Positions 38,788-63,883 of a stretch of DNA of 64,000 nucleotides are shown piece by piece. Position 1 is the stretch's first letter. Each line of letters begins with the position of its first letter. The notes beneath the pieces are model-generated. The model was not told the origin of the DNA. It did not search any database and was given only the letters and a program-made list of their open reading frames with translations. The translations under genes were made by a program, and so were the position numbers. The DNA is from Candidatus Latescibacterota bacterium (GTDB taxonomy: Bacteria; Latescibacterota; UBA2968; UBA8231). The stretch covers positions 32,001 to 96,000 of the forward strand of contig CBDCDC010000002.1 of the NCBI GenBank assembly GCA_965215195.1. Reading direction: 5' to 3'.

Positions 38788-40227
38788 TTAGACGATGCTG
38801 GCTCGCAGCCATGCTCGGTAGGCCAGCATGTAGGTGAGCGTGGCGAAGAAGAAGAGGCCGATGACATCGACGACCGCGTGGCGTAGCAGGGTGGTCGCCG
38901 ACATCTCCTCGGTAAAGACCGGCAGGGTGTCGGGGTCGATTTTCTGCCGCGATAGCCCTTGGGCGATGTGGATGTGCGGGCTTTTGGGATCGTCGCGGTC
39001 GAGGGTGAGCATGGTCTGCTTGAACTGCTGGACGTAGATGCGCACCTGCTCGACAAAGCTTTTGTGGCGCGCCAGTCCGGTGCCGGCGAGGGCCTCCATG
39101 CCGTATTGGAAGCAGCCGGTCGGCGACAAGCGCACGATGTGGCGGGCTTTTTCGACCTCCCCGAGGCTGTAAGCCAAAAATTCGTCTTCGCGGTTTTGGA
39201 GAACCCGAAGAAAGGCGTGGTCGGCCTCGGCCAACTGGCGCAATTTTTCGGGTTTTCTCAGATCGCGCCTCCGCGTATGGTTCCTAAGACTACTAATTTT
39301 CATTTTTTCTGGAGGGTTAAACTCCCACTCCATTACAACGGCCTCCCCGAATTCGCGGACCACCACGCGGGAGGCCAGCGCACCGCCAGCCGATGGCCAG
39401 AGCAACACCCCGCAGGTCCACAGCAACAGCACGCCCACCAAGCTGGAGCGCGTACTGCTGCTCCGTATCGACACCCACAGCCCCAATGCAACAAAGCAGG
39501 CCAGATACAGCAGGGCTAGGCCGACCATGCCGACCAAGCGCCCGGCCTCGACCAGACCCAAGTTTACCTGCGAGAGTGCGAGGACGATGAGTAGATTGAC
39601 GACAATGGCGAGGCTTAGGACGAGGGCGAGAGCCAACATCGCGCCGAGGAACTTGCCCAGCAGCAGGGTGTGGCGCGGCAGGCTCTGCGCCATGACCAGC
39701 TTGAGCGTGCCGCGCTCTTTTTCGCCGATGAAGGCGTCAAAGGTGAACAGCAAGGCCATGAGGCTGAGCAGGCCGCCGATGATAAAGACCCAGTCGATGG
39801 CTCGGGTCTTCATCAGTTGGCTGGCCTTGGGGGCCCAGATGCCTTCGATGTCCCAATAGATGAGTGGAAAGGGATCGTAGAACCAAGTGCCGCTGTACTG
39901 AAATCGCCAGCTCGGCGTCCACAGGCGCTCGGGCAGGGCGTCGTTGGCACCCACGGCGCAGAACATGAGGGGGCTAGGTTTTTTATAGATATAGTCCTGC
40001 CCCCCATGGACGATCAGCTTCCACAAGCCCATTTGGGCGTTGCTACGGCCGATTTCTTGCTCGGCTTGGACCTGTTCGAGATAGAGGTCGCGCCGGAACT
40101 CATACGAGCCGCCGACAAAGCTGAGGGCGTTGAGCACCATCAGCCCTACGATCAGCACGAGGGCCAAGCTGAAGCGCAGGCTGATGAGGTGATCGATCAG
40201 TTCGCGTTTTACAATGGCTGCGAGCAT
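38788..40227 (-). CDS. ABC-2-like permease type B, copy 1
   Basis: IVKRELIDH, GEKERGTLKL, LLGKFLG; large extracytoplasmic loops. Confidence 0.85.
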   Translation of the reverse strand: MLAAIVKRELIDHLISLRFSLALVLIVGLMVLNALSFVGGSYEFRRDLYLEQVQAEQEIGRSNAQMGLWKLIVHGGQDYIYKKPSPLMFCAVGANDALPERLWTPSWRFQYSGTWFYDPFPLIYWDIEGIWAPKASQLMKTRAIDWVFIIGGLLSLMALLFTFDAFIGEKERGTLKLVMAQSLPRHTLLLGKFLGAMLALALVLSLAIVVNLLIVLALSQVNLGLVEAGRLVGMVGLALLYLACFVALGLWVSIRSSSTRSSLVGVLLLWTCGVLLWPSAGGALASRVVVREFGEAVVMEWEFNPPEKMKISSLRNHTRRRDLRKPEKLRQLAEADHAFLRVLQNREDEFLAYSLGEVEKARHIVRLSPTGCFQYGMEALAGTGLARHKSFVEQVRIYVQQFKQTMLTLDRDDPKSPHIHIAQGLSRQKIDPDTLPVFTEEMSATTLLRHAVVDVIGLFFFATLTYMLAYRAWLRASIV

Positions 40228-40257
40228 GGGGAAGCCTCCTTCTTTGGAGTCAGCGGA

Positions 40258-40379
40258 TTAGATGAGGTTGAACAGAAAGTTCTGCTCTGGAGGTATAACC
40301 TATAGCTATCGCCTTCCTAGTCTACGCACGCCGACTGGGCGAACCAAGCGGCGATTAGGGCGAAATACAAAGTTTTCAT
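40258..40379 (-). pseudogene. Doubly deleted remnant of the ~280-aa secreted family (paralog of 49920-50735)
   Basis: MKTLYFALIAAWFAQSACVD*EG|DSYRLYLQ|QNFLFNLI matches three pieces of the paralog. Confidence 0.85.
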
Positions 40380-40409
40380 CGGTACACCTCTTCTGGGTTT
40401 GGGTTGGGT

Positions 40410-40448
40410 TGCCCCGGAATAGCGGCGATTAAGCCACTATCCCGGGGC
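40410..40448 (-). repeat. Conserved intergenic hairpin (also ~41366, ~44047, ~50767, ~61142)
   Basis: GCCCCGGGATAGTGGC-TTAATC-GCCGCTATTCCGGGGC on the minus strand. Confidence 0.8.
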
Positions 40449-40515
40449 GGGTTAGGGTTGGAGGAGAGGGCGAGTGGCCTAGACCAGTTTCTTTTTTTGC
40501 TCCGTTGGGATTGGC

Positions 40516-41334
40516 CTAGATGTAACCGAACAGAAAATACGGCGTCCCGATGCAGTAAACGAGCTCTACATGGCGCCACATAGCCTTGTCTGGATCCCAA
40601 GCCATGCGGAAGAAGAACGGGATGTGCGCCATTTCGAGGGCGGCGAACTCCTCGGGCTCTTCGACGATGAACATGACCTCGACAAAGGTCTGCGGTTTGC
40701 CCGCTTGGAGGTGCTCTTGGACCTCGCTCTTCATTTTGGAAAATCTGCCCGATACTTCCGTGGGTGGAAGCAGGCCGCGCTCCCTGAGGGACTCGGAATA
40801 AGGGCTGTACTCGGCCTGCCTCTCGGACACCTCAAACGCGCTGTCGAAAAAGGATACCTTTCCGAAGTAGTAATCGTATTCATTCTTGTCGAGGAGTTGC
40901 CGGTGTCCCGCTTTGAGGATGTCAAAAGGCGTCTCGCCTTTTAAGAGGCCCTCGCTTGCAAGCCGGTTTTTCAACTCCTCTATCGCTTCGGGGTTATTGA
41001 CGCCCTCGCGGAGGTAAAACGCGGCGGCGAGGCTGTCGCTACTCGAAACCGAAAAGGCGACTAAGAGATCGTAGAGGTAGGTGCGCAGATCGGCTTCTTG
41101 CTCGGGAGTGATGGGAGTGTCCCCCTCGACGGGGATGGCCGCGATGGCCTGCTGCAGCTCGTCCCCGGCCTCGACGTTTATCATCTCCAAGCTGTTGACA
41201 TAGTCGTGAAAGGCTTGGAGAGAGACTTGCCAGTTCTCGTCCCAGGAGTAGCCGCCGTACTGGGCTTTTGGCTCGGCAGCGGCACTGGAGGCGGCGAACC
41301 AAGCGGCGATTAGGGCGAAATACAAAGTTTTCAT
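40516..41334 (-). CDS. Unrecognised secreted ~280-aa family, paralog H1
   Basis: Signal peptide; QYGG, DSLAAAFYLREGVNNP, MFIVEEPEE, WDP..MWR.VE. Confidence 0.85.
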   Translation of the reverse strand: MKTLYFALIAAWFAASSAAAEPKAQYGGYSWDENWQVSLQAFHDYVNSLEMINVEAGDELQQAIAAIPVEGDTPITPEQEADLRTYLYDLLVAFSVSSSDSLAAAFYLREGVNNPEAIEELKNRLASEGLLKGETPFDILKAGHRQLLDKNEYDYYFGKVSFFDSAFEVSERQAEYSPYSESLRERGLLPPTEVSGRFSKMKSEVQEHLQAGKPQTFVEVMFIVEEPEEFAALEMAHIPFFFRMAWDPDKAMWRHVELVYCIGTPYFLFGYI

Positions 41335-41454: not shown

Positions 41455-41634
41455 TTAGGAGCTGCATACCGGATTCCCGTATGCGTCGCAATAGCACTTG
41501 ACCGCACTACCGATTACGATGCACCAACCGTTATCGCAGTCGGCCCCGCACATATCAGCCTCGGCCTTCTGCGGCAGGAAGCTGACGATCAAGCCCGTGA
41601 GGCTAATGGCCAGCCGGATGATGCGCTTTTTCAT
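41455..41634 (-). CDS. Small secreted 6-Cys peptide P1 (59 aa; below the ORF-track cutoff)
   Basis: MKKRIIRLAISLTGLIVSFLPQKAEA-DMCGADCDNGWCIVIGSAVKCYCDAYGNPVCSS; AAAGGAG RBS. Confidence 0.85.
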   Translation of the reverse strand: MKKRIIRLAISLTGLIVSFLPQKAEADMCGADCDNGWCIVIGSAVKCYCDAYGNPVCSS

Positions 41635-41793
41635 GATAATCTCCTTTGATCTGGTGTGCTGCGTTGTCTCGGAGGCGATCTCCGAGGTGAAGCACTGGCC
41701 GCTAGAGGCCAGTTTAGACGACGTGTTTCATAAGCGTTCCCTCCTTTCTGTTGCTGTTGAAGAGTGTGGGTTGTTGCTTCAGTAAGACTTATC

Positions 41794-41809
41794 GCAATTT
41801 TCGTGCCAA
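41794..41809 (-). promoter_or_regulatory. sigma54 -24/-12 promoter, unit 1
   Basis: TTGGCACGAAAATTGC matches the TGGCACG-N4-TTGC consensus. Confidence 0.88.
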
Positions 41810-41952
41810 TGCGTGATCAGTGGTCGTCAAGTGCGCTGAGTTCTATGATTGTATGAATCCTAAATGACTGTTAAATAATGTCTTATGAAAAATAAAGAAA
41901 TTTTTATCGCCTGTGTCTCAGGCCCTTGCAAAGTCCTTTTGACGGCCTAAAA

Positions 41953-42014
41953 GTGCGACAATACATCGCACAAATGCGTCGAATTATCGCGTTTAGTGCG
42001 TCTAAACATCGCAC
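41953..42014. promoter_or_regulatory. Triple palindromic upstream activator sequence, unit 1
   Basis: GTGCG-N9-CGCAC x3 with 21-22 bp period. Confidence 0.75.
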
Positions 42015-43916: not shown

Positions 43917-44043
43917 GGCGGGATGCCGTCTCGGTCATCTCGTCGGGCGATACCTCACTGTAACGCTCGTGAAAGTGCAACAGGTCGCGCAAGACTAATT
44001 CGGCGGGAATGAGCGGATCGGGCCAGATGCCGGCCCGCCACAG
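43917..44043 (-). pseudogene. Remnant of the 3' end of a GT2 gene paralogous to 62828-63883
   Basis: LWRAGIWPDPLIPAELVLRDLLHFHERYSEVSPDE vs LWRAGIWPDLLIPAELVLRDLLHLHERYSEVQPDE. Confidence 0.85.
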
Positions 44044-44136: not shown

Positions 44137-44319
44137 TTAGGAGCTGCATACCGCACTCCCGTTTGCGTCGCACTTGCACTCAACTATCCAACCGATTGCG
44201 GAGCACGATGAACCGTTAGGGCAAGTGATGCTGCACCAAACAGCCTCGGCCTTCTGCGGCAGGAAGCTGACGATCAAGCCCGTGAGGCTAATGGCCAGCC
44301 GGATGATGCGCTTTTTCAT
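44137..44319 (-). CDS. Small secreted 6-Cys peptide P2
   Basis: Same leader as P1; core VWCSITCPNGSSCSAIGWIVECKCDANGSAVCSS. Confidence 0.85.
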   Translation of the reverse strand: MKKRIIRLAISLTGLIVSFLPQKAEAVWCSITCPNGSSCSAIGWIVECKCDANGSAVCSS

Positions 44320-44478
44320 GATAATCTCCTTTGATCTGGTTTGTTGCGTTGTCTCGGAGGCGATCTCCGAGGTGAAGCACTGGCCGCTAGAGGCCAGTTT
44401 AGACGACGTGTTGCATAAGCGTTCCCTCCTTTCTGTTGCTGTTGAAGAGTGTGGGTTGTTGCTTCAGTAAGACCTATC

Positions 44479-44494
44479 GCAATTTTCGTGCCAA
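44479..44494 (-). promoter_or_regulatory. sigma54 promoter, unit 2 (UAS at 44638-44699)
   Basis: TTGGCACGAAAATTGC. Confidence 0.88.
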
Positions 44495-44841
44495 GTCGTG
44501 GACAATGGTCGTCAATCGCGCTGAGTTCTATGATTGTATGAATCCTAAATGACTGTTAAATAATGTCTTATGAAAAATAAAGAAATCTTTATCGCCTGTA
44601 TCTCAGGCCCTTGCGAAGTCCTTTTGACGGCCTAAAAGTGCGACAATACATCGCACAAATGCGTCGAATTATCGCGGTTAGTGCGTCTAAACATCGCACG
44701 GACGCGCTTGGCTTTGACGGTAGGCGGTGGATGGTGCGGGACGGGTAGATGGGGATTGGGGCGGCTGGCCGGCGTGGCCGGACGCGAAAGGGGCAGCCCA
44801 TAGATCGGACTGCCCCCTCTACTTCCTTCTGAGATTTCGGG

Positions 44842-46416
44842 TTACTTGGCGTCGTAGCGGGCAAAGAGCCGGTTGGCGAGGACAAACAGCCCGACTGCAT
44901 ACAGCAACAGAGAGGTTAGCTCCGGCCAGGCGTGGCGCAGACTCTGGGCGACGGTCCAGCCGCGTTCCTTAAACCTCGGCAGGTCGCGCAGGTCGGCGCG
45001 CCAGCCGGAATCATCGTTGAACCACTCGCGGGAGCCGAAGGCATCGCGCTCTTCGAGGAAGGTGACGATTTGCCCGCGATAGGTGCGGACTTGGGCCATG
45101 AAGTCGTCGTATTCGCGTCGGCTGGTGCCGGCGCAGGCACTGGCGGCTTGGGCATACGCACCGGCGGGCAGGAGGCGCTGGAGATAGGCATTCCAGCGCT
45201 GGATGCGGCGGGGGAAGTTTTCGAGCAGGGGGGCTTTGGCGTTCCAGGCGGACTGGGCGTACTTCAGGCGCAGGCGCTCGCCGGTGCGGATGATGTCTTG
45301 GAACTCGGCGAGTGCGGGCGAATCGACGACATTGGATAGATAGAAACCGGCAATATGCTCTTTCAGTTCAGAGTATGGGCCACCCGTAATGTTAAATAGC
45401 GTTCCGCGTCCCGGCTGTGGAGGGAGCTGCTCGACCATGCGGACGGGAGGATACTTGGTCTGGCCGTGCGTCCGAGCAAGGTCGGTGACCTCCTGATCGA
45501 ACTCCTTCCACACTTGCGCGGCTTGGTGATGGGCTTGGGCATGCTTTTCACCCATGTTGGCCTGCTCGTTGAGCAAGGCCGTGATGCTGTCGGGCAGCAC
45601 AATCGCCAGCAACGCCCACGTGAACAGCGCGTAAATCAAGCTGGTCGCCGAGCGATGGGTCGCGCACGAGATGGCCAGCCCAATCAGGTAGAACACCAGC
45701 AGATACAGTAGCGACAGCGCCAACAGCAGCCCCAACCGCACCCACTCGCCGATTCCGACTTCGATGTACTCGGTGCCCAACAGCAAGATCGTCAGCAGGA
45801 TAAAGCCCAAGGCCGTTGGAATGGCCAGTGTGGTCAGGCCGGCGAGGACTTTGCCGGCGAGGACTTGGGCGCGGCTGACGTTGGTCGTTAGCATCAGCCG
45901 CAGGGTGCCGTCCTCCTTCTCGCCGGAGACGGTCTCGCTGGCGATGAGGATGGCCAGCAGGCCGAGCACGAGTTGGAAGATGTACACGATGTCGAAGGAG
46001 GCAAAGATGGCGAGGTAGGGATTACCCGACTGGAAGGGGGCAATCGCCTCGGTTTGGTAGGGCACCTCGAAGAGCAAGACTTTGACGGCTTGCCCCACCT
46101 CTTGTTCGACGCCTTGGGCGAACACTTGTAGGGGGCGCGGGGGCCGTAGCGCACGCGGGGCCGCCTTATCTACGAATGAATCCCCCGAGACCGACTCGCT
46201 GTGGTCCGTGCCTAGAGCCGAATAATGGGTGATTTCGTGCAGTTTGGTCTCCTCAACAGCGCGTTGCGTGAGGTAGCTGGCCTTTTTCTGGACATAGGCT
46301 TGGCTGGTGAGCAGACCGTTGGCGATGATGAGCACCACCGCGAGGGCGGTGCAAGCGGCGAAGCGCTGGCTGAGCAGATGGCTGAGCATCTCTTTTTTGA
46401 ACACAATGCCGATCAT
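44842..46416 (-). CDS. ABC-2-like permease type A, copy 2
   Basis: Close paralog of 42315-43886. Confidence 0.85.
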   Translation of the reverse strand: MIGIVFKKEMLSHLLSQRFAACTALAVVLIIANGLLTSQAYVQKKASYLTQRAVEETKLHEITHYSALGTDHSESVSGDSFVDKAAPRALRPPRPLQVFAQGVEQEVGQAVKVLLFEVPYQTEAIAPFQSGNPYLAIFASFDIVYIFQLVLGLLAILIASETVSGEKEDGTLRLMLTTNVSRAQVLAGKVLAGLTTLAIPTALGFILLTILLLGTEYIEVGIGEWVRLGLLLALSLLYLLVFYLIGLAISCATHRSATSLIYALFTWALLAIVLPDSITALLNEQANMGEKHAQAHHQAAQVWKEFDQEVTDLARTHGQTKYPPVRMVEQLPPQPGRGTLFNITGGPYSELKEHIAGFYLSNVVDSPALAEFQDIIRTGERLRLKYAQSAWNAKAPLLENFPRRIQRWNAYLQRLLPAGAYAQAASACAGTSRREYDDFMAQVRTYRGQIVTFLEERDAFGSREWFNDDSGWRADLRDLPRFKERGWTVAQSLRHAWPELTSLLLYAVGLFVLANRLFARYDAK

Positions 46417-47462: not shown

Positions 47463-48410
47463 TTATCGCGTCAGGGCCAGCACGGGTATGCGCACCTGCT
47501 CTGCGCCGATTTGCACCTCTACGCCACAGTGCAGCGTGCCAGTGGGGAAATCGCTCGTGTTGCGGATCTGGACGACTAAGCTGTTGTCGGCTTCTCGCTG
47601 GTATGCGATGTCCAGTTGCACCTCGCCGCACACGGGCGACGCCTGTACGGGTGCGTCGATCAATTTCGCTGGCAAGCCCACGCGTACTTGGCGCGTCTCG
47701 CGCCGCTGCGCTGCACCCACGCCGAAGGACGCGCTCTGCGGCGCTAGGCTAAAGCGAGGGCTGACCCGTCCGCGCACTTGGATGGAACGGGGAGACGCTT
47801 CGCCCTCGGCAGCAATCGTCGCTTCAATGGTGGCGACGATGCGATCGCCCCACGTCAGGCCCGCGGCCGGGGTGAGCTCTAGGGCGGTGCCATCGTCCAC
47901 TACCGACGCCTCTATGCCTTTTCCCGCGACCTGCACTTGGCGAATGTGTCGCGGCTGCCCGTTGATCTGCGCGAGGGGAATGCGGCGGATGATGGAGGAT
48001 AGATCGTCGCCTTGGATCGTCCCTAGGTGCAGTTTGCTGGGCAGCATGGGCACGACCTGTCCCTCCAACTGCAACTGCCATTTATCGGCTTGGCCGGCCA
48101 CGCTAAAGTCAATGCTGGGGGTAAAAGTCCCGGCGCGCCCCGAAGTGTCGATCTGGTAGGCAATCGAGTACGTCTCGCCGGCCTTCAACGGCCCTTGGGG
48201 GAACTCGACGCCGGTGCAGCCGCAGCCGGGTTCGGCCGCGACGATTTCCATGTCGTAGGGCGCGACAAAGCGCACCTCGCCGGTCGTGCCCTCGCTGTCG
48301 TAGGTCGTGCCGTACTCAGCGGTCTGCGGCAGTTCGTCGGCATGGGCCCAGCCCGTGTAAAATACGGCGACTAGGGCCGCTACTTTTAGCGTTAGGTTGT
48401 TCATGATCAT
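47463..48410 (-). CDS. DUF1573-like Ig-fold secreted protein
   Basis: Signal peptide; EPGCGCT..PLKAGE..IDTSGRAG. Confidence 0.75.
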   Translation of the reverse strand: MIMNNLTLKVAALVAVFYTGWAHADELPQTAEYGTTYDSEGTTGEVRFVAPYDMEIVAAEPGCGCTGVEFPQGPLKAGETYSIAYQIDTSGRAGTFTPSIDFSVAGQADKWQLQLEGQVVPMLPSKLHLGTIQGDDLSSIIRRIPLAQINGQPRHIRQVQVAGKGIEASVVDDGTALELTPAAGLTWGDRIVATIEATIAAEGEASPRSIQVRGRVSPRFSLAPQSASFGVGAAQRRETRQVRVGLPAKLIDAPVQASPVCGEVQLDIAYQREADNSLVVQIRNTSDFPTGTLHCGVEVQIGAEQVRIPVLALTR

Positions 48411-51043: not shown

Positions 51044-51202
51044 GATAATCTCCTTTGATCTGGTTTGTTGCGTTGTCTCGGAGGCGATCTCCGAGGCGAA
51101 GCACTGGCCGCTAGAGGCCAGTTTAGACGACGTGTTGCATAAGCGTTATCTCCTTTCTGTTGCTGTTGAAGAGTGTGGGTTGTTGCTTCAGTAAGACTTA
51201 TC

Positions 51203-54143: not shown

Positions 54144-54989
54144 TTACATGTAGTCAATCAGAAAAAAATGCGACAGTCGAGAGTTATAAAAAGCCTCTAC
54201 AAAGCGCCACGTAGCCCGCTCTGGGTCCCAAGCCAGCCGGAAAAAGAGGGGGGTGCGTATCTGTGCTGCAAACCACCCGGCGGACTCTTCGGGCTCTTCG
54301 GTAATGAACATGATGTCGGTAAAGACCCACTGCTCGCCCGCCTGTAGAGCGGCCTCAATATCTTCCCTCAATTTGGGCTCGTTCCCATACACTGGCCCGG
54401 CAACCACCATGCCGTGGGCCCGGGCGTAGGCCAGATAACTCTCGTAAGTGCCCTGCATCTCGAACACCTTGAATACACTATGGAGAAAGGACACATTTCC
54501 AAAGCGGTATTCATAGTCTTTGTTGTCGAGTGTGGCTCTGTGCTTGGCTTGGAAGAGGGCCAAGGGCGTATCGCCTTTTAGGAGTCCCCGACGCTCTAGA
54601 TCTTTTTTTATTTTTTCTAGGGCATCGGGGTTATTGACGCCTTCGCGCAAGTAAAACTGGGCGGCGAGGCTGTCGCTGCCGGAGACGGAAAAGGCGACGA
54701 GAAAGTCGTAGAGCCAGGTGCGCAGGTCAGCTTCTTGCTCGGAGGTGATGGGGACGCCCGGCTCAACGGGGATGGTTGCTACGGCCTGCTGTAGCTCGGG
54801 GCCCGCCTTGACCTTCATCATCTCCAAGCTGTGGAGATAGTCGATATTGACTTGGAGGCTGTCAGGGTGCGGCGAGAAGCCGCCGTACTGGCGTTTGAGC
54901 TCGGCAGCAACGCTGGAGACGCCGAGATAGATGGCGACCAAAGCAAGATATAGGGTGCGAATGGCCAGCCGGATGATGCGCATCTTCAT
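54144..54989 (-). CDS. Unrecognised secreted family, paralog H4, with a peptide-leader-like N-terminus
   Basis: Starts MKMRIIRLAI, then family motifs. Confidence 0.85.
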   Translation of the reverse strand: MKMRIIRLAIRTLYLALVAIYLGVSSVAAELKRQYGGFSPHPDSLQVNIDYLHSLEMMKVKAGPELQQAVATIPVEPGVPITSEQEADLRTWLYDFLVAFSVSGSDSLAAQFYLREGVNNPDALEKIKKDLERRGLLKGDTPLALFQAKHRATLDNKDYEYRFGNVSFLHSVFKVFEMQGTYESYLAYARAHGMVVAGPVYGNEPKLREDIEAALQAGEQWVFTDIMFITEEPEESAGWFAAQIRTPLFFRLAWDPERATWRFVEAFYNSRLSHFFLIDYM

Positions 54990-55147
54990 AACGAACTCCG
55001 TTACGTAGGTTTGCTGCGTTGTCTCGGAGGCGATCTCCGAGGTGAAGCACTGGCTACTAAGGCTGCAAGCCCAAGCCAGTTGAGACGATGTGCTTCATAA
55101 GCGTTCCCTCCTTTCTGTTGTGGGTTGCTGCTTCTGTAGGCATTATT

Positions 55148-55163
55148 GCAATTATCGTGCCAA
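55148..55163 (-). promoter_or_regulatory. sigma54 promoter, unit 4 (UAS at 55307-55368)
   Basis: TTGGCACGATAATTGC. Confidence 0.88.
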
Positions 55164-55502
55164 TGAATGGCCAGCGGGCGATAATCGCGCCGATTCCTTT
55201 GATTTTATACATCCTAACTGACTGTTATACAATACTTTATAAAAAATGAGCTAATTTCCTTGCTCGTCTCTCAGGCTCTTTGCGATGCTTGCTTGACGCC
55301 CTAAAAGTGCGCGGATATATCGCACAAGTGCGTCTAATCATCGCGTTTAGTGCGTCTAATCATCGCACCGGGGGACTATTGATTGCGGCGTAGGCCCTGT
55401 TCAGTGGAACGGTGCCGCCGCCTGCTGAGGCCGTGTCGGACGGCGTTGGTGGAAGGGGAGAGAGGTTGGTGCGGGGGTGGCGGTCTATGGGGAAGGCGTT
55501 TG

Positions 55503-55543
55503 GGTCAAGCGGCCATGGCCTTCAGGACCGCGGGGCTCTGCAT
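55503..55543 (-). pseudogene. Remnant of the TPR gene 3' end
   Basis: GTCAAGCGGCCATGGCCTT-AGGACCGC matches 46447 onward. Confidence 0.65.
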
Positions 55544-55576
55544 CGAGGCGCGCCGCCGCCACCCATTCGGCGACCT

Positions 55577-57028
55577 TTAGACAATACTGGTCCGCAGCCA
55601 TGCTCGGTAGGCGAGCATGTAGGTGAGCGTGGCGAAGAAGAAGAGACCGATGACATCGACAACCGCGTGCCGCAGCAAGGTCGTCGCCGACAGGTTCTCG
55701 GTGAAAATCGGCAGGGTGTCGGGATCGATTTTCTGCCGCGACAGCCCTTGGGCGACGAGGGGGATGTGCATGCTTTTGGGATCGTCGCGGTCGCGGGTGA
55801 GCATGGTCTGCTCAAACTGCTGGACGTAAGTACGCGCCTGCTCAACAAAGCTTTTGTGGCGCGCCAGTCCGGTGCCGGCGAGCGCCTCCATGCCGTACTG
55901 AAAGCAGCCTGCTGGCGACAGGCGCACGATGTGGCGGGCGTTTTCGACCTCGCCGAGGCTGTGAGCCAAAAAGCGGTTTTCGCGGTCTTGGTGAAACTGG
56001 CGCACGGCGCGTTGGGCGTCGGCCAACTGGCGCACTTTTTCGGGGTTTCTCAGATCGCGATTCCGCAATTTACGTTTAAGGTCAAGAAGTTTATCGTGGG
56101 CTGGCGTATTATTGTTTGCGAAGCCCCATCCCAGTACCAACTCCTCCTCGAATTCGCTGATCAACACACGGGCGGCCAATGCACCGCCGGTGGCCGGCCA
56201 GAGCAACGCCCCACAAGTCCACAGCAACAGCACGCCCACCAAGCTGGAGCGCGTACTGCTGCTCCGTATCGACACCCATAGCCCCAAGCCGACAAAGCAG
56301 GCCAGATACAGCAGCGACAGGCCGACCATGCCGACCAAGCGCCCGGCCTCGACCAGACCCAAGTTCACCTTTGAGAGCGCGAGGATGATGAGCAAGTTGA
56401 CGACGATGGCGAGGCTGAGCACGAGGGCGAGGACGAGCAATGCGCCGAGGAACTTGCCCAGCAGCAGGGTGTGGCGCGGCAGGCTCTGCGCCATGACCAG
56501 CTTGAGGGTGCCGCGCTCTTTTTCGCCGATGAAGGCGTCAAAGGTGAACAACAAGGCCATGAGGCTGAGCAGGCCGCCGATGATAAAGACCCAGTCGATG
56601 GCTTGGGTCTCCAGCAGTTGGCTGGCCTTGGGGGCCCAGATGTCGATGATGTCCCAATAGATGAGTACAAAGGGATCGTAGAATCTGACGCTGTTGTAGG
56701 TGTTTTCCCCGCCCTGTGTCCAGAGACGCTCGGGCAGGGCGTCGTCGGCACCCGTGGCGCAGAACATGAGGGTACTGGGTTTTTTGTAGATGTACTCCTG
56801 CCCTGCATGGAGAATCAGCTTCCACAGGCCCCGCTGGGCGTTGCTGCGGCCGATTTCTTGCTCGGCTTGGACTTGCTGGAGATAGTGGTCGCGTCGGAAC
56901 TCGTAGGAGCCGCCGACAAAGCCGAGGGCGTTGAGCACCATTAGCCCCACTGTCAGCACGAGAGCCAAGCCAAAGCGCAGGCTGATGAGGTGGTCGATCA
57001 GTTCGCGTTTTACGATAGCTGCTAGCAT
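55577..57028 (-). CDS. ABC-2-like permease type B, copy 3
   Basis: Start set at MLAAIVKRE by paralog comparison and AAGGAG RBS. Confidence 0.85.
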   Translation of the reverse strand: MLAAIVKRELIDHLISLRFGLALVLTVGLMVLNALGFVGGSYEFRRDHYLQQVQAEQEIGRSNAQRGLWKLILHAGQEYIYKKPSTLMFCATGADDALPERLWTQGGENTYNSVRFYDPFVLIYWDIIDIWAPKASQLLETQAIDWVFIIGGLLSLMALLFTFDAFIGEKERGTLKLVMAQSLPRHTLLLGKFLGALLVLALVLSLAIVVNLLIILALSKVNLGLVEAGRLVGMVGLSLLYLACFVGLGLWVSIRSSSTRSSLVGVLLLWTCGALLWPATGGALAARVLISEFEEELVLGWGFANNNTPAHDKLLDLKRKLRNRDLRNPEKVRQLADAQRAVRQFHQDRENRFLAHSLGEVENARHIVRLSPAGCFQYGMEALAGTGLARHKSFVEQARTYVQQFEQTMLTRDRDDPKSMHIPLVAQGLSRQKIDPDTLPIFTENLSATTLLRHAVVDVIGLFFFATLTYMLAYRAWLRTSIV

Positions 57029-57054: not shown

Positions 57055-58629
57055 TCACATGGCGTCGTAGCGGGCGAAGAGCCGGTTGGCGAGGACAAAT
57101 AACACGGCCGCATAGAGCAACAGGACCATTAGAGCCGGCCAAGCGTGGCTCAAGCTCTCAGCGACGGTCCAGCCGCGCTCGTGAAACCTCGGCAGGTCGC
57201 GCAGGTCGGCTCGCCAGCCGGGATCGTCGTTGAACCACTCGCGGGCGCCAAACGCATCGCGGTCTTCGAGAAAGGTGATGATCTGCCCTCGGTAGGCGCG
57301 TACTTGGTCGATAAAGTCGTCGTATTCGCGTCGGCTGGTGCCGGCGAGGATGCTAGCGGCTTGGGCGTAAGCACCGGCCGGCAGGAGGCGTTGGAGTTGG
57401 GCGTTGAGGCGTTGGATGCGGCGGGGGAAGCCTTCAAGCAGGGGAGCCTTCTCGTTCCAAGCGCGCTGGGCGTATTTCAAGCGCAGCCGCTCGCCAACAC
57501 GGACGATGTCTTGGAACTTCGCCAGTGCGGGTGAATCGGCGACATTCGATACATAGAGTTGGGGCGTTTGCCCGTCTCTTGTAGAGTAGCATTTAGTTCC
57601 CTTATAGTAGGTTAGAGTCCCGCGTCCTTCCTGCGGCGGGAGCTGCTTGACCATATCTGTGGGAAAGTACTGGGTCTGGCCGTGCGCCCGTGCGAGGTCG
57701 AGAACCTCCTGATCGAACTCTTTCCACACTTGCGCGGCTTGGTGATGGGCTTGCTCGTGCTTTTCGCCCATGTTGGCCTGCTCGTTGAGTAAGGCTGAGA
57801 TGCTGTTGGGCAACACAATCGCCAGCAGTGCCCACGTAAACAGGGCGTAAATCAAGCTGGTCGCCGAGCGGTGCGTCGCGCACGAGATCACCAGCCCAAT
57901 CAGGTAGAATACCAGCAGATACAGCAGCGACAGCGCCAACAGCAAGCCCACCCGCACCCACTCGCCGATCCCGACTTCGATGTTCTCGGTGCCCAACAGC
58001 AAGATCGTCAGCAGGATGAAGCCCAAGGCCGTTGGAATGGCCAGCGTGGTCAGGCCGGCGAGGACTTTGCCGGCGAGGACTTGGGCGCGGCTGACGTTGG
58101 TGGTCAGCATCAGCCGCAGGGTGCCGTCCTCCTTCTCGCCGGAGATGGTCTCGCTGGCGATGAGGATGGCCAGCAAGCCGAGCACGAGTTGGAAGATGTA
58201 CACCATATCGAAGAAGGCAAAGAGGGCGAGGTAGGGATTGCTCGATTGGAAAGGCGAGACCTCCTCGGCTTGGTAGGGCACGTTGAAGAGCATCACCTTG
58301 ACGGCCTGCCCTGCCTGTCGTTCGGCACCTTGAGCGAACACTTGTAGGGGGCGCGGGGGCCGTAGCGCACGCGGGGCCGCCTTGGGCTTGGGACTACCGT
58401 TAGGCGACACCAACCAGTCCCAGCCTAGAACCGAATAATAGGTGATTTCGTGCAGTTTGCTGTCCTCAACAGCCCGCTGTATGAGGTAGCTGGCCTTTTT
58501 GTGGACATAGGTCTGAGTAGAGAGCACGCCGTTGGCGATAATGAGCACCACGGCGAGGGCGGTGCAAGCGGCGAAGCGCTGGCTGAGCAGGTGGCTGAGC
58601 ATCTCTTTTTTGAACACAATGCCGATCAT
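57055..58629 (-). CDS. ABC-2-like permease type A, copy 4
   Basis: Most diverged type A paralog. Confidence 0.85.
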   Translation of the reverse strand: MIGIVFKKEMLSHLLSQRFAACTALAVVLIIANGVLSTQTYVHKKASYLIQRAVEDSKLHEITYYSVLGWDWLVSPNGSPKPKAAPRALRPPRPLQVFAQGAERQAGQAVKVMLFNVPYQAEEVSPFQSSNPYLALFAFFDMVYIFQLVLGLLAILIASETISGEKEDGTLRLMLTTNVSRAQVLAGKVLAGLTTLAIPTALGFILLTILLLGTENIEVGIGEWVRVGLLLALSLLYLLVFYLIGLVISCATHRSATSLIYALFTWALLAIVLPNSISALLNEQANMGEKHEQAHHQAAQVWKEFDQEVLDLARAHGQTQYFPTDMVKQLPPQEGRGTLTYYKGTKCYSTRDGQTPQLYVSNVADSPALAKFQDIVRVGERLRLKYAQRAWNEKAPLLEGFPRRIQRLNAQLQRLLPAGAYAQAASILAGTSRREYDDFIDQVRAYRGQIITFLEDRDAFGAREWFNDDPGWRADLRDLPRFHERGWTVAESLSHAWPALMVLLLYAAVLFVLANRLFARYDAM

Positions 58630-58660: not shown

Positions 58661-59325
58661 TCAAGCGGCCATAGCCTTAATGACCGCTTGGCTCTGCATC
58701 TCCATACCGAGCTGCTTAAACAGACGCAACGCCGCCACCCATTCTGCCAACGCCCGTTGCTTGTTGCCATCCTGTTTCGCGTACAGATTGCCCAAGGATA
58801 CGTAGTTGAAAGCCTGCATCCGCGCGTTCCCTAGCTGTCGGCACAAGTCCATAGAAGCCTGTATATGCCGTTGTGCCATCGCGAGGTCGCCCGCTGTCAT
58901 GTAGAGGTCGGCCAGCAGCGTCGCCATGCCACAGCGGCCTTGGGCATGCCCCTGCGCCACGTAGATGCTCAAGGCTTCGTTGCCGTTGCTCAAGGCGCGG
59001 TCTATGTGGCCTAAGTTGCGGCAGACCGAAGCAATGGAGCCGAGTTGCAGGGCTACTTCAAGGGGCGTCCCTTGCTGCCGGGCGGCGGCGAGGCCGGCCG
59101 TGAAGTGGTGCAGGGCTTGCGCTGAGTCGCCGCGGCGCAGGGCCAGTTGCCCCAAGCTGTTGAGCAGGTTGCCCGGCACGTCGTCGTCGTAGAGGGCGCG
59201 GCTGCGCTGGAGCCACTGTTGGGCTTCCGCCAAATCGTTCTGCTGCATGTAGAGGTTGCCCATGTTGTTGGCCATCTTGGCGGCGAGGGCGGCATCGCCG
59301 CCTTGTTGGGCATTAGCTTGTTCAT
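58661..59325 (-). pseudogene. Deletion fusion of the DUF1573 gene start to the 3' part of the TPR gene
   Basis: 59311-59348 resembles 48391-48429; the rest is nearly identical to 46448-47098. Confidence 0.8.
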
Positions 59326-60191: not shown

Positions 60192-60233
60192 GGTATTTCC
60201 TCCAGTTAAGTAGTGGTTTGTGGCAGGACTGGT

Positions 60234-61064
60234 TTACGTGGCGCCGAACGAGAACGCAACCGGCGCGTTATTAGACGTGAAAATTTCTACCAAACGCCAC
60301 ATACTCCGCTCGGGATCCCAGACCTGTCGCACGAAAAACGGGGCGCGTATTGCCCCCTCGAAGTCAGCAAACTCTTCGGGCTCTTCGACGATGAACAGGA
60401 CATCGGCAAAGACCCGCTGCTCGTCCGCTTGCAGGGCTGCCGCGACCTCGCGCATCAGCTTGGGGGGCCACCCCATCAAGCCCCAGGGAAGCAGGCCGTG
60501 GGACTTGGCGTATTCCATATAGCTTTCATACCCCCCTTGCTTCTCGAACACGCGGTACACACTGTCGAAAAAGGATGCGTTTCCGAGGAAATAATCGCGC
60601 CCCTTAAAGTCGAGATTTTCTCTGTATGCGGCTTTGAATACGGCCAAGGGCGTATCGCCTTTTAGGAGGCCCTTACTCTCAAGCCTCTTTTTCAGTTCCT
60701 CTACTCCGTCGGGGTTATTGACGCCCTCGCGGAGGTAAAAGGCGGCGGCGAGGCTGTCGCTGCCCGAGGCCGAAAAGGCGACGAGGAAATCGTAGAGCCA
60801 GGCGCGCAGGTTGGCTTCTTGCTGGGGGGTGATGGAAATGTTCGCCTCGACGGGGATAGCTTCAACGGTGCTCTGCAACTCGGGGCCGGCCTCGACCGGG
60901 ATCATATCCAAACTGTGGATGTAGTCGAGATAGGCTTGGTGGCCGTCGGCATCGGGCGAAAAGCCGCCGTACTGGGGCTGGGGATCGGCCGCGGCTGCGT
61001 TGGAGAGGGCGAACCAGATGGTCAGCAGGGCGAAAGACAGGGTGCTAATGGCTAAGGGTTTCAT
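60234..61064 (-). CDS. Unrecognised secreted family, paralog H6
   Basis: Start at MKPLAI after AAGGAG. Confidence 0.85.
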   Translation of the reverse strand: MKPLAISTLSFALLTIWFALSNAAAADPQPQYGGFSPDADGHQAYLDYIHSLDMIPVEAGPELQSTVEAIPVEANISITPQQEANLRAWLYDFLVAFSASGSDSLAAAFYLREGVNNPDGVEELKKRLESKGLLKGDTPLAVFKAAYRENLDFKGRDYFLGNASFFDSVYRVFEKQGGYESYMEYAKSHGLLPWGLMGWPPKLMREVAAALQADEQRVFADVLFIVEEPEEFADFEGAIRAPFFVRQVWDPERSMWRLVEIFTSNNAPVAFSFGAT

Positions 61065-61217: not shown

Positions 61218-61272
61218 AAAGCCGAGGGCGTTGAGCACCATCAGCCCCACTGTCAGCACGAGGGCTAAGCTA
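61218..61272 (-). pseudogene. Small remnant of the permease type B 5' region
   Basis: AAAGCCGAGGGCGTTGAGCACCAT-AGCCCCACTGTCAGCACGAG matches ~56918-56965. Confidence 0.7.
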
Positions 61273-61321
61273 ATCTCCTTGCTTTTCAGGTTGATAGCTT
61301 ATATCGGAAGTGGTCTGCGAC

Positions 61322-62236
61322 CTACAAGAATGAAAACCGAACCGGCGCGTTATTCGGCATGACGATTTCTACGAGACGCCACATAGCCTTCTCCGGGCTC
61401 CAGACGAGTCGTACGAAAAACGGGTAGCGCATTGGCCCCTTTTCAAAATCGGCGACCTCTTCCGGCTCTTCGAAGATGAACATGAGTTGGGCCGCCACCC
61501 ACTTTTCGCCGGCCTGTAGAGCTTCCTCTAGCTCGTTTCCCATGGGAGACAAACTCATATAGCCCATGGGGAGCAGGCCATGGGTCTTGATGTAAGCCCA
61601 ATAGTGCTCATACTCTCCTTGCAGCTCGAATACGCGATACGCGCTGTCGAAAAAGGAGATGTTGCCGAAGAAGTAATCGCATCCCTTCGCGTCGAGGTTT
61701 TTTCTGTGCTGGGTTTTTAAGATGGCAAGGGGCGTATCGCCCGCATCGGGGACCGGCTCGGGAATGGGGATACTCATCGCGAGCCCCGCCGCCTTTATCT
61801 GTTCCTGCAACTTTTTTATTTCGGCGATTTCTGCGGCACTAGGACCGCTTTCCAATCGCTCTTTTATCTGCTGTATCTCGTCTGGGTCATCGACGCCTTC
61901 GCGCAAGTAAAAAGTAGCGGCGAGGCTATCGCTGCCGGAAGCGGAAAAGGCGACGAGAAAGTCGTAGAGCCAGTCGCGCAAGTCGGCTTCTTGCTGGGGG
62001 GTGATGGAAATGTCCGCCTTGACGGGGATAGCCTCGACGGCCTGCTGCAATTCGTCGCCGGCCTTGACCAGGACCATGTCCAAACTGTGGATGTAGTCGA
62101 GATAGGCTTGGTGGCCGTCGGCATCAGGCGAAAAGCCGCCGTACTGAGGCTGGGGATCGGCCGCGGTCGTGCTGGCGACAGCCAGCCAAGCGGCGACTAG
62201 GGCAAAAGACAGGGTGTTAATGGCTAAAGGTTTCAT
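61322..62236 (-). CDS. Unrecognised secreted family, paralog H7
   Basis: Start at MKPLAI after AAGGAG; larger central insertion. Confidence 0.85.
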   Translation of the reverse strand: MKPLAINTLSFALVAAWLAVASTTAADPQPQYGGFSPDADGHQAYLDYIHSLDMVLVKAGDELQQAVEAIPVKADISITPQQEADLRDWLYDFLVAFSASGSDSLAATFYLREGVDDPDEIQQIKERLESGPSAAEIAEIKKLQEQIKAAGLAMSIPIPEPVPDAGDTPLAILKTQHRKNLDAKGCDYFFGNISFFDSAYRVFELQGEYEHYWAYIKTHGLLPMGYMSLSPMGNELEEALQAGEKWVAAQLMFIFEEPEEVADFEKGPMRYPFFVRLVWSPEKAMWRLVEIVMPNNAPVRFSFL

Positions 62237-62375
62237 GGTGTTCTCCTTGTTCTTGGGTTTGTCGTTGTCGCGATGGCGAGTAATTGGCTGGTACTTGTCC
62301 GTGTGCTGGCTTGCCTTGGGGTAGTGGCGAGTTACCTCCTTTCTGTTGTGGGTTGCTGCTTCTGTAGGCATTATC

Positions 62376-62391
62376 GCAATTATCGTGCCAA
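62376..62391 (-). promoter_or_regulatory. sigma54 promoter, unit 5 (UAS at 62535-62596)
   Basis: TTGGCACGATAATTGC. Confidence 0.88.
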
Positions 62392-62790
62392 TGAATGGCC
62401 AGCGGGCGATAATCGCGCCGATTGCTTTGATTTTATACATCCTAACTGACTTTTATACAATACTTTATAAAAAATGAACTAATTTCCTCGTCCATCTCTC
62501 AGGCTTTTTGCGACGCTCGCTTGATACGCTAAAAGTGCGCGGATATATCGCACAAGTGCGTCGAATCATCGCTTTTAGTGCGCCTAAACATCGCACGGAC
62601 ATACCAGTCATTTGCGGCGCAAGTCCTGCTCCGTTGAACGGAGCCGCTGATATTTTTTAAGCAGCGTCTGACGATGCAGTTGATGCGGAACGAGCGGCAG
62701 ATGCGATCGGGTCGGGCTAACGGGTAAGTCGGCGGATAGTGCGGGGGGATGGCAGGAGGGGATTTCGGTCTCTGGGACGGTCAGTTGCGG

Positions 62791-62823
62791 CGGGGCGTCG
62801 CCTGCTAAACAGACGACGCCCCG
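62791..62823 (-). terminator. Stem-loop right after the GT2 stop codon
   Basis: CGGGGCGTCG...CGACGCCCCG. Confidence 0.6.
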
Positions 62824-62827
62824 ATTT

Positions 62828-63883
62828 TCAGGCTGCCCGAGCGGGATGCCGCAGCAGCAGGGCTTCGATCTCGGCTAGCTCGTCGGGCTGGACTTCGCTG
62901 TACCGCTCGTGAAGGTGCAATAGGTCGCGCAAGACCAATTCGGCGGGAATGAGCAGATCGGGCCAGATGCCCGCCCGCCACAGCTCAATTAACCGCAGCT
63001 TGGGGTCGCGGTTTTCCCGCACCATGTAGTCAATGGCTTGGTCCCGGGTGCGCTGTTCGGCGGCGAGTTTGCTCGGGTCGGAAAACTCGTGATAGTGGTA
63101 CAAGTGATACGTCAGGGCGCGGCGGGCAAAGCCCGGGCCGACGCCGGCGCGCTGCAAGCGATAGGCCAAATCCCATCCCTCGGAAAACGGAATGTCCGCC
63201 GCAAAACCGCCCACCTCGCAGAAGGCTTGGCGCGGCACCGCGCTGTTGTGCGGATAAAAGCCGAGAAAGCCCACCGGCGAATCGGGGTGCGCCGCGTACA
63301 GCTCCGCGGCTTGATCCTGCATGGCCTTCAGCTCGTCAAAGGGATAGCCGCCCTCTTGGGCGCGGGCGTGGATGCCGGCAAAGTCGTGGCGAATCTGGTC
63401 TTGGGTAATCAGCACCCGCTCTCGATTGATCAGCAGGAAATCGGCTAAGACGCTCGGGGTGCGCTCTTGGTCAAACACGGCCTGCTGCGGGTCGGGCAGA
63501 TACTCGATGAGGGGCAGGCTATACATGAAGCCGCACAAATAGCGCTGGCACGCCCCGCGCTCCCACTCTGCCCACAGGTGCTCCAACCAATCGGGATGCG
63601 GCAGGGCGTCGCCGTCGAGAAAGGCCACCAACGCGCCCCGCGCCTGTTCGACGCCGGCGTTGCGCGCCCGGCAGCGCCCCACATTGGGCCGCATTCGCAC
63701 CACATGTACCGCTGGATATTCAGCGGCCAGCATGGCGTCCGTGCCATCGGTGCAGCCATCGTCAACGACGATGACCTCAAAACGCTCCTTGGGAAAATGC
63801 TGGCAAGCTAGGCCGCACAACACCAAGCGCAGACGCGCCCGCTGGTTGTGGGTGGCAATGACGACGGAAATATCGGGGTTCAT
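62828..63883 (-). CDS. Family 2 glycosyltransferase
   Basis: SVVIATHN, VIVVDDGCTDGT, ARNAG, FLDGD, EGWDLAYRL. Confidence 0.92.
   Translation of the reverse strand: MNPDISVVIATHNQRARLRLVLCGLACQHFPKERFEVIVVDDGCTDGTDAMLAAEYPAVHVVRMRPNVGRCRARNAGVEQARGALVAFLDGDALPHPDWLEHLWAEWERGACQRYLCGFMYSLPLIEYLPDPQQAVFDQERTPSVLADFLLINRERVLITQDQIRHDFAGIHARAQEGGYPFDELKAMQDQAAELYAAHPDSPVGFLGFYPHNSAVPRQAFCEVGGFAADIPFSEGWDLAYRLQRAGVGPGFARRALTYHLYHYHEFSDPSKLAAEQRTRDQAIDYMVRENRDPKLRLIELWRAGIWPDLLIPAELVLRDLLHLHERYSEVQPDELAEIEALLLRHPARAA

Follow-up and report, generated by a model that had tools for sequence, protein, structure and literature searches.

Several described systems offer partial precedents for the locus analyzed here, a cassette array of roughly 29 kb which lies for the most part in a 64,000-nucleotide stretch of DNA from a Latescibacterota bacterium (the window, G000:C2:32001-96000; the host genome has 6.13 Mb in two contigs, with 60% GC). 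The array combines genes for small secreted peptides with six cysteines, for secreted proteins of a family that we call H, and for two kinds of ATP-binding cassette (ABC) permeases, A and B. The LanFEG/LanI-type lantibiotic immunity and bacteriocin loci of Gram-positive bacteria are similar in that they combine two-component regulation with a small peptide for secretion, an accessory protein outside the cytoplasm, and one ATPase with two paralogous ABC-2 permeases. They differ in that here the peptide has a Sec signal, the cell is diderm, TolC-like and NEW3 proteins are present, the permeases carry a DUF3526-type insert of roughly 200 residues, control is by sigma54, and the ATPase is encoded in trans and would be common to many permease pairs. 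No lanthionine or other modification synthetase is present among the array genes, all of which are assigned to the families listed below. NosDFY also has an ABC-2 permease with a periplasmic partner, and among solved structures NosY (7o0y, phmmer E 2.9e-6) is closest to permease A, but this similarity is limited to the membrane core (139 residues, 143-281), and here there are two distinct permeases with large extra loops and a TolC-like partner; NosD, NosL, and NosZ are absent from the assigned genes of the array and of the compact loci of its relatives. MacAB-TolC, which exports periplasmic disulfide peptides such as heat-stable enterotoxin II, parallels the route proposed below (Sec, disulfides, then ATP-driven expulsion through a TolC-family duct, the OEP gene lying within the operon in relatives and in trans here). 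However, our permeases are of the ABC-2 class, and instead of the adaptor there is a NEW3 protein, which contains a helical hairpin modelled with confidence and is anchored in the membrane at its C-terminus; Pfam scans of the array, the ATPase trios described below, and NEW3 found no HlyD or MacB/FtsX domain. The orphan immunity arrays of polymorphic toxins are alike in their tandem, diverged copies of secreted or periplasmic proteins that outnumber the presumed toxin genes, in their solitary copies, and in their remnants and shuffling. Unlike such recently acquired genes, those for H are old and conserved, and no toxin domain, secretion-system marker, or known immunity family was detected at the array.

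A last comparison comes from the original prediction, which was made from the sequence of the window alone and likened the locus to the NVEALA-peptide/DUF1573 loci of Bacteroidota, a phylum other than that of the present system. The likeness extends to a small secreted peptide encoded near a DUF1573 gene and stops there: the peptides have no Pfam match, although Pfam has a model for NVEALA, the NVEALA motif is absent from the 22 peptides that we aligned, and DUF1573 accompanies only 11 of the 58 loci that we collected. By analogy, then, the design principle resembles that of bacteriocin/immunity loci and of TolC-dependent ABC export, while no family name fits H or the peptide. A full-text literature search on DUF3526 found no paper on the transporter class, and targeted searches on NVEALA and on Latescibacter with sigma-54 found none either; the passages retrieved from PMC12993501 contain no occurrence of "ABC," "sigma," or "bacteriocin," though its supplements could list such genes.

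All genes from position 38788 to the end of the window lie on the minus strand, and Pfam together with tblastn sorts those of the array into a small set of families (table 1). Five units, each opening with upstream sites and a sigma54 promoter exactly where predicted, draw on this set: three peptide genes, two of them identical; seven intact H genes (47.5-62% identical to copy 1) plus an internally deleted remnant, all without a Pfam family; four copies of permease A (82-96% identity to copy 1); three of permease B (the other two 81% and 97% identical to copy 1) plus a 56-nt fragment; and single full copies of genes for a DUF1573 protein, a tetratricopeptide repeat (TPR) protein, and a family 2 glycosyltransferase (GT2). 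When the intergenic DNA was searched by blastn against the array genes, five fragments emerged (H, GT2, two of TPR, and permease B). The predicted parts list therefore holds except for its DUF1573 fragment, which did not appear in this search at E<=1e-3. An Rfam scan of the whole window returned 0 matches.

The locus is confirmed as a genuine cassette array drawing on one parts list. Strain variants of a single unit wrongly laid in tandem during assembly could in principle mimic it: some repeats are 90-99% identical (the copies of permeases A and B, besides the two identical peptide genes), the pieces listed from public short-read contigs are at most 1.35 kb long and bridge no unit, hence neither confirm nor refute the unit order, and one contig of run X1 has another junction, from 55061 to 48450. 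Yet gene content and order vary between the units, each H copy falls in a different old clade with its own orthologues, gene fragments record past rearrangements, the genome is assembled in 2 contigs, and single-contig genomes of the same genus hold similar arrays (G130 with 10 H matches within 40 kb); tandem peptide-H-A units resembling those of the window are present also at loci L013 and L016. We consider an artefact of this kind to be extremely improbable. Part of the stretch was recovered in seven of nine listed public runs from three studies, with at least 97% identity in four runs of two studies; one run, labelled as a metagenome, has a share of 0.05. The deviant contig of run X1 (depth 13.9, with 35 letters on its short side) would place the H gene at 54144 directly after the permease B gene at 48450; this junction may be a structural variant in another strain.

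Exact matches to TGGCAC-N5-TTGC number five in the window, every one of them within the array and on the minus strand, against 0.26 expected (0 of 100 shuffles reach five), and they sit 70-175 nt upstream of the first open reading frame (ORF) of each unit; with one mismatch allowed the count is unremarkable (8 vs. 5.96 expected). Each promoter is preceded, 145-206 nt upstream, by two exact GTGCG-N9-CGCAC palindromes (10 vs. 0.21 expected), and alignment of the promoter regions reveals a third, imperfect site between the two, besides an AT-rich spacer. These regions are homologous copies and the motif counts are not independent events; promoter and palindromes have nevertheless remained invariant while the flanking DNA is only about 70% identical. 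The peptide gene is the first behind three of the five promoters.

The array ends about 3.5 kb past the window (at about 67.5 kb). Beyond position 64000 there follow a truncated gene for a GT1-transglutaminase protein (two overlapping frames, 64009-65158), a sixth promoter, two H genes, and a seventh promoter, so that seven exact sigma54 promoters start array units, five in the window and two beyond; six of them have GTGCG-N9-CGCAC sites. At the upstream end lies the gene for an NtrC-type regulator (receiver, Sigma54_activat at 1.3e-69, and HTH_8), equivalent to positions 67717-69120 (L001:3717-5120) and hence about 3.8 kb past the end of the window, with a dCache/HAMP histidine kinase gene beside it; rpoN is present elsewhere in the genome (Sigma54_DBD, 4.8e-59). 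The prediction had stated that the cluster has no ABC ATPase, peptidase, or sigma54 activator within the window, which is true of the array, the ABC ATPase encoded at 21704-22393 being unrelated to it. It is not true of the system: besides the nearby activator, ATPase genes are present at two loci with the same kind of promoter. While none of the 83 ABC_tran matches in the genome lies in the array, two adjoin paralogous loci (C1:802.8-806.4 kb and C2:481-484.7 kb) in which a sigma54 promoter is followed by genes for a NEW3 protein (503 aa), a TolC-family protein (Pfam OEP, 2.9e-37; NCBIfam TolC-family matches are sub-threshold), and a DrrA-like ATPase (240 aa). There are 44 exact -24/-12 matches in the genome, of which ten have the upstream site within 260 nt, and all ten occur at H, permease, or NEW3-trio loci, both ATPase trios among them. 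Because every site-bearing promoter falls at a locus of the system, the array and the remote ATPase trios make up one predicted regulon.

The genome thus holds two NEW3/OEP/ATPase trios compared with 9 matches for permease A, 8 for B, and 16 for H. Across genomes the ATPase is 94-98% and NEW3 72-89% identical. The structural model of NEW3 is of limited quality overall (predicted local distance difference test, pLDDT, 65; predicted template modeling score, pTM, 0.41), with a helical hairpin at residues 24-103 that is confident (pLDDT about 90), after which come beta-sandwich domains and, at the C-terminus, a membrane helix. The protein has no further Pfam domain at E<=10, a search of PDB sequences came back empty, and Foldseek gave only generic matches to tandem Ig-like domains (TM-score about 0.2). 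Since these searches are uninformative, it is the predicted hairpin that suggests a role as periplasmic adaptor.

Permeases A and B both belong to ABC2_membrane_2 with a DUF3526-type insert and are 24-28% identical to each other. Their NCBIfam matches (GldF, MutG, SagH, and PmtD) are faint and all far below cut-off, for instance 17.6 bits against 117.2 for the MutG/LanG model TIGR03733. Variation is concentrated in hot spots. Among the four copies of A the ratio of nonsynonymous to synonymous substitutions (dN/dS) is 0.84 at residues 61-90 and reaches 1.08 at residues 316-375; among the three copies of B it reaches 2.0 at residues 91-150 and 286-360. Outside the hot spots and the windows overlapping them it is 0.03-0.53. 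These sliding-window Nei-Gojobori values are crude, since they derive from three or four paralogues and ignore recombination. Hydropathy indicates six membrane segments, with the hot spots in the loop between segments 1 and 2 and in the insert of roughly 200 residues between segments 5 and 6; we infer from the sequence that both variable loops would face the periplasm under an N-in topology.

The 22 aligned peptides have 12 invariant columns, namely the six cysteines and M1, T13, L20, P21, Q22, and A26 of the signal. A Sec-type signal, which ends in A-x-A after the hydrophobic core, precedes a mature part of 33-34 residues that is variable apart from its cysteines (C-x3-C, a variable gap, C, a variable gap, C-x-C, a variable gap, C). 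Six of the 22 sequences have equal length; in these, the signal has a dN/dS of 0.29 and the mature part, cysteines included, one of 0.83. Together with the permease hot spots, these values bear out the prediction that scaffolds are conserved while likely exposed segments vary. No match was found in Pfam at E<=0.01 or in NCBIfam, and the best score in the ESM Atlas (0.80) is at chance level.

Could the N-terminus be instead the leader of a peptide made on ribosomes and modified after translation (a RiPP or a glycocin-like peptide), with the GT2 and GT1 enzymes glycosylating a Cys/Ser-rich core and the transglutaminase-like domain cutting off the leader ahead of ABC export? For a signal peptide, the invariance of the FLPQKAEA segment is unusual, GT2 and the GT1-transglutaminase fusion occur in the loci of relatives, and GT2 matches the mycofactocin glycosyltransferase model below threshold (108 bits, cut-off 280); moreover, transglutaminase-like proteases cut leaders in lasso-peptide pathways. 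Nevertheless, the N-terminus has the charged/hydrophobic/A-x-A layout of Sec signals, similar to that of the H signals. Neither a double-glycine leader nor a peptidase-domain ABC exporter is present, the ABC parts being ABC-2 permeases and a 240-aa ATPase; the GT1-transglutaminase gene is a truncated remnant here while the peptide genes are intact, and the enzyme trio recurs elsewhere without peptides. We give this scenario very little weight.

We also observed a second class of Cys-rich peptides, in divergent loci of C1 type, which have the signal MKR.F.. ... LLP..A.A, four to six cysteines, and 64-78 residues. Their genes (L005:14595-14810 and L006:4005-4211 on contig C1 of the host; L007:18821-19057, L023:19829-20023, L062:11034-11237, and L063:10997-11197) adjoin H, A, and B genes encoding 33%-identical proteins. 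Searches by tblastn with the peptides of the window missed all of them except for one faint match (C1:786595-786747, E 1.5e-4), hence the count of peptide co-occurrence given below is an underestimate.

The H proteins, of about 250 residues, have a signal of A-x-A type and no lipobox cysteine. Their model (pLDDT 85, pTM 0.83) matched nothing in the PDB at E<=1e-3 with Foldseek, and VIA-align returned almost exclusively NTF2-like or cystatin-like chains, with Z of only 4.2-6.0 over residues about 71-263. As a lead, then, the predicted fold may be an NTF2-like alpha+beta cone, inside which many invariant residues lie. No match was found in NCBIfam or, even at E<=10, in Pfam. The best score in the ESM Atlas, 0.87, is at chance level, and the nearest named clusters there, at 0.78-0.80, are DUF3828, DUF4864, and DUF4019, which we take to be NTF2-like. 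Profile searches of H and of the peptide against PDB sequences yielded chance-level rows only (E 0.28-8.5). An exhaustive HMMER search of 1.84 billion representatives yielded only 63 clusters of H at E<=1e-3, fragments in many cases; a profile of 16 paralogues retrieved at least 550 proteins, and none of the 120 listed has a Pfam domain, the three names shown being all "hypothetical." Pfam, NCBIfam, and the search of 1.84 billion representatives agree that H and the peptide match no described family, in support of the prediction.

In evolutionary terms, H and its neighbors have followed different courses. A quick IQ-TREE phylogeny of 126 rows, from which matches with less than 85% coverage, stop-containing rows, and identical duplicates had been dropped, places each of the nine array copies with orthologues from other genomes and never with another array copy. 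H comprises old, stable subtypes whose positions are conserved; for example, the type encoded at 49920 always precedes permease B. All solitary H genes belong to the clade of the NtrC-adjacent H, with an exact sigma54 promoter upstream in 12 of 22 cases. Where orthologues of H share 76-92% identity, the mature peptides next to them share 43-71%, and in two neighboring units of L016 the figures are 92% for H and 50% for the peptides. It follows that the peptides and the permease loops are the fast-moving parts. The notion that H diversifies rapidly is therefore abandoned, and the strict matching of one peptide with one H that the prediction envisaged does not emerge from these comparisons. When H (residues 21-272) was co-folded with the mature peptide, the score of 0.27 (against a mark of 0.32) neither supported nor opposed binding.

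What, then, is the array for? The explanation that we favor, though with somewhat less than even confidence, is that the cells secrete disulfide peptides by Sec, while H and interchangeable permease pairs serve export, immunity, or both through a shared ABC engine. Export and self-protection are favored because of the logic of the regulon, the position of the peptide behind three promoters, the variation of peptide cores and permease loops, and the conservation of ATPase, NEW3, and TolC-like proteins. A signal sensed by the dCache/HAMP kinase would turn on the whole regulon; the peptides would reach the periplasm by Sec and form three disulfides there; alternative A/B pairs would dock on one shared ATPase and one NEW3/TolC-like conduit; and the assembly would expel the peptides across the outer membrane, keep them off the envelope of the producer, or both, with H as a periplasmic binder acting as carrier or immunity protein. 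By analogy we infer the logic of a bacteriocin production/immunity locus built from new parts in a double-membrane cell, in which one engine serves many specificity modules.

The same secreted products could also be effectors toward a host or a community, with peptides and H together as exported cargo (signals or adhesion modulators) and the permeases as cargo-specific adaptors, without any immunity. Sec-type signals on both families, a TolC-like duct in the regulon, and the restriction of H to one genus, as expected of a niche-specific trait, would fit such a role; furthermore, a fixed signal followed by a variable disulfide-rich core recalls the way in which toxin and effector peptides of animals evolve. 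Yet Pfam scans show no eukaryote-like domains, H paralogues are conserved across species unlike fast host-facing antigens, and ducts of TolC type are narrow for a folded protein of 28 kDa. We judge effectors improbable.

The distribution of the components bears on the export of peptides as well. The H profile identifies 58 loci in public genomes titled Latescibacterota or Latescibacteria and, in five cases, Gemmatimonadota or Gemmatimonadetes; several overlap within one genome, hence are not independent, and short contigs are among them. In flanks of 10 kb around H we found permease B at 29 of these loci, A at 28, the peptide at 21, GT2 at 17, NEW3 at 15, GT1-transglutaminase at 14, NtrC at 13, ATPase and TPR at 12 each, and the TolC-like protein and DUF1573 at 11 each. 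Compact operons with NtrC, H, A, B, NEW3, OEP, and ATPase genes are present at L021 and L022, and at L009 a span of 20 kb holds NtrC, GT1-transglutaminase, GT2, A, a promoter, the peptide, two H, B, DUF1573, TPR, NEW3, OEP, and ATPase. The components do co-occur in other genomes, as predicted. H and the permeases are found also without the peptide, and H also alone. The birth-and-death array that had been proposed is real as a cassette array, while matching of its modules and an antimicrobial, kin-recognition, or host-related function are conjectural. Among 168 genomes and 49 genera of the phylum, H is present in 25 genomes of a single genus (24 of the 30 other genomes of that genus), permease A type in 77 genomes of 30 genera, and NEW3 in 78 genomes, likewise of 30 genera; within the genus, 15 of 31 genomes have the peptide and 25 of 31 have H. 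The order is nested: the phylum-wide pump is oldest, then H, then the peptide. The system to which the array belongs is specific to a single genus of Latescibacterota. In other genera (L068, G099:C1:5936001-5954000; L069, G007:C123:1-9000), ATPase, NEW3, TolC-like, and permease genes are interleaved with those for HEAT-repeat (and CBM9-like) lipoproteins instead of H, and at least seven tandem permease genes lie on one contig from another genus. The multiplication of permease genes is a trait of the transporter class across the phylum. In the single other-genus locus that we inspected, we saw no Cys-rich peptide.

The system might instead export a lipid or glycoconjugate of the envelope: ABC-2 pairs, NEW3, and the TolC-like protein would move a hydrophobic or glycosylated component made with the GT1 and GT2 enzymes, with H as periplasmic carrier and the peptides as a late addition of separate function. 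ABC-2 permeases are indeed classic exporters of polymers or lipids. The core is phylum-wide with no peptide gene seen in the other-genus locus, H and the pump occur without the peptide, GT2, GT1-transglutaminase, and TPR genes are in the locus, and an NTF2-like cone with many invariant residues inside would be comparable to NTF2-like lipid shuttles. Nonetheless, three other loci have the TPR/GT1-transglutaminase/GT2 trio but neither H nor these permeases, and two of the three adjoin pumps of MacB type, so that the trio looks like an independent module. Loop dN/dS values near or above 1 and the many permease pairs are hard to fit to one invariant substrate, and the peptide gene comes first behind three of the five promoters. 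This alternative is unlikely, in our opinion, although less so than effectors.

Several observations weigh against the export and self-protection that we favor. The pump is older than both H and the peptide (30 of 49 genera vs. 1 of 49 for H), and its basic job need not be peptide export, because it is phylum-wide and is accompanied by HEAT-repeat lipoproteins elsewhere. The peptide is dispensable (15/31 genomes vs. 25/31 for H), being absent at L021, L022, and the host's own L002 from operons with H, A, B, NEW3, OEP, and ATPase, and four genomes (93-95% complete, three of them single-contig) have one H each, with no close NEW3 or permease A. Old, slowly evolving H paralogues beside fast peptides weaken one-to-one specificity; the distances of peptides and H are correlated (Mantel r 0.65, p 2e-4, n 18), but linkage and shared descent alone could produce this. 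Neither the peptide nor H resembles a known bacteriocin or immunity family in Pfam, NCBIfam, or PDB sequence searches, and the scheme does not account for the DUF1573, TPR, GT2, and GT1-transglutaminase proteins.

A bolder version of the export and immunity scheme, which we regard as possible but doubtful, is that these loci represent a hitherto undescribed class of bacteriocin-like or kin-discrimination systems of diderm bacteria, with Sec-secreted peptides of three disulfides that evolve as conotoxins do (signal fixed, core variable), a library of NTF2-like periplasmic immunity proteins, and interchangeable heterodimeric ABC-2 permease modules on one ATPase/NEW3/TolC-like engine, all turned on by a single NtrC/sigma54 circuit. 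If so, the array would be a strain-level cassette library of weapons and shields in an uncultured phylum, and the permease arrays found across the phylum would be a general modular platform for export. Whatever their function, H and the six-Cys peptide are orphan families (63 clusters of H, in one of 49 genera) tied to a Latescibacterota-wide transporter class. The favored scheme, if true, would provide the first functional handle on this class of NosY-like ABC-2 permeases with DUF3526 insert, NEW3, and TolC-like proteins, an example of ABC design with a single ATPase for many permease pairs, and a new source, among uncultured bacteria, of small peptides rich in disulfides. The regulon is computable from the upstream site and the -24/-12 promoter (10/10 sites), hence testable in metatranscriptomes.

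Table 1. Features of the array within the window; positions are counted from its first nucleotide.
Feature	Position	Strand	Evidence
Permease B copy 1, 479 aa, NosY-like ABC-2 with DUF3526-type insert	38788-40227	-	Pfam ABC2_membrane_2 1.8e-28, DUF3526 5.6e-4; tblastn
H remnant, internally deleted, pieces of 49920-type H	40258-40379	-	three stretches of H 49920-50735 matched at 94-100% by blastn
H copy 1, 272 aa, secreted, weak NTF2-like model	40516-41334	-	
Six-Cys peptide variant 2, 59 aa (signal peptide + 33-aa mature part)	41455-41634	-	
Leader element: ribosome-binding site + 5-codon upstream ORF	41716-41744, 44401-44429, 51125-51153, 55083-55111	-	
Sigma54 promoter 1 (41794-41808) + GTGCG-N9-CGCAC sites 41953-41971, 41996-42014	41794-42014	-	
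Permease A copy 1, 523 aa	42315-43886	-	Pfam ABC2_membrane_2 3.5e-27, DUF3526 1.2e-5; NosY 7o0y E 2.9e-6
GT2 remnant	43929-44043	-	blastn 88% over 115 nt to GT2 gene; tblastn
Six-Cys peptide variant 1, 60 aa	44137-44319	-	
Sigma54 promoter 2 (44479-44493) + two upstream sites	44479-44699	-	
Permease A copy 2, 95.6% identical to copy 1	44842-46416	-	
TPR protein, 334 aa	46448-47452	-	Pfam TPR_12 5.6e-31
DUF1573 protein, 315 aa, N-terminal hydrophobic segment, probably secreted	47463-48410	-	Pfam DUF1573 5.8e-9
Permease B copy 2, 96.7% identical to copy 1	48450-49889	-	
H copy 2, 271 aa	49920-50735	-	
Six-Cys peptide variant 1, protein identical to 44137-44319	50861-51043	-	
Sigma54 promoter 3 (51203-51217) + two upstream sites	51203-51423	-	
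Permease A copy 3, 90.3% identical to copy 1	51566-53137	-	
H copy 3, 289 aa	53215-54084	-	
H copy 4, 281 aa, first residues resemble peptide signal	54144-54989	-	
Sigma54 promoter 4 (55148-55162) + two upstream sites	55148-55368	-	
TPR gene 3'-end fragment, 40 nt	55505-55544	-	blastn
Permease B copy 3, 81.4% identical to copy 1, start set at conserved MLAAIVK	55577-57028	-	
Permease A copy 4, 81.8% identical to copy 1	57055-58629	-	
TPR fragment, residues 118-334, 98% identical to full copy	58664-59314	-	
H copy 5, 277 aa	59358-60191	-	
H copy 6	60234-61064	-	
Permease B fragment, 56 nt	61218-61273	-	blastn
H copy 7	61322-62239	-	
Sigma54 promoter 5 (62376-62390) + two upstream sites	62376-62596	-	
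GT2 glycosyltransferase, 351 aa, part of recurring TPR/GT1-transglutaminase/GT2 trio	62828-63883	-	Pfam Glycos_transf_2 3.5e-26

Some features of the array deserve separate mention. The leader element listed in table 1 encodes MKHVV or MQHVV followed by a stop, with a strong ribosome-binding site before it and two short GC-rich hairpins after it; the copy at 55083 has lost its stop, and the element precedes H also at L002 in the same genome. It may exert translational or attenuation control. The fold of the leader between promoter and peptide gene is unremarkable (z -1.6). H copy 4, which lies directly behind a promoter, starts with MKMRIIRLAI, compared with MKKRIIRLAI in the peptide signal; it looks as if recombination had replaced a peptide gene, fusing its first codons to H.

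The trio of genes for TPR, GT1-transglutaminase fusion (about 824 aa, with 20-23 cysteines), and GT2 proteins recurs on contig C2 of the host (L065:9440-14251 and L067:7023-11780). At L066:4378-9572, on the same contig, there are only two large adjacent ORFs, the second of which starts like GT2. The trio of L065 has genes for ABC permeases and ATPases of MacB type as neighbors, and neither H nor the six-Cys peptide is there. The GT2, TPR, and GT1-transglutaminase pieces of the window seem to be copies of a separate module.

Regarding the flanks, genes for a regulator of OmpR type and a histidine kinase whose N-terminal sensor region is large lie on the same strand at 36047-38684, 103 nt past the last permease B gene. 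We set them aside as members of the system, because their orthologues (86-91% identical) lie 6-7 kb from H at only two of the 58 loci (L038 and L046); they are probably flanking context. On the minus strand at 20907-22761, ORFs of 123, 229 (the ABC ATPase), and 266 aa resemble, in size and order, three genes just upstream of the solitary H of L035 (8035-9874). Finally, a 464-aa ORF that starts like an oxidoreductase of dihydrolipoyl-dehydrogenase type suggests, by its size and N-terminus only, that L037 (OZ220690.1) has the same left flank as L001:7266-10128; at this flank L037 has a single H behind a sigma54 promoter, and the site may be a hot spot of cassette gain and loss.

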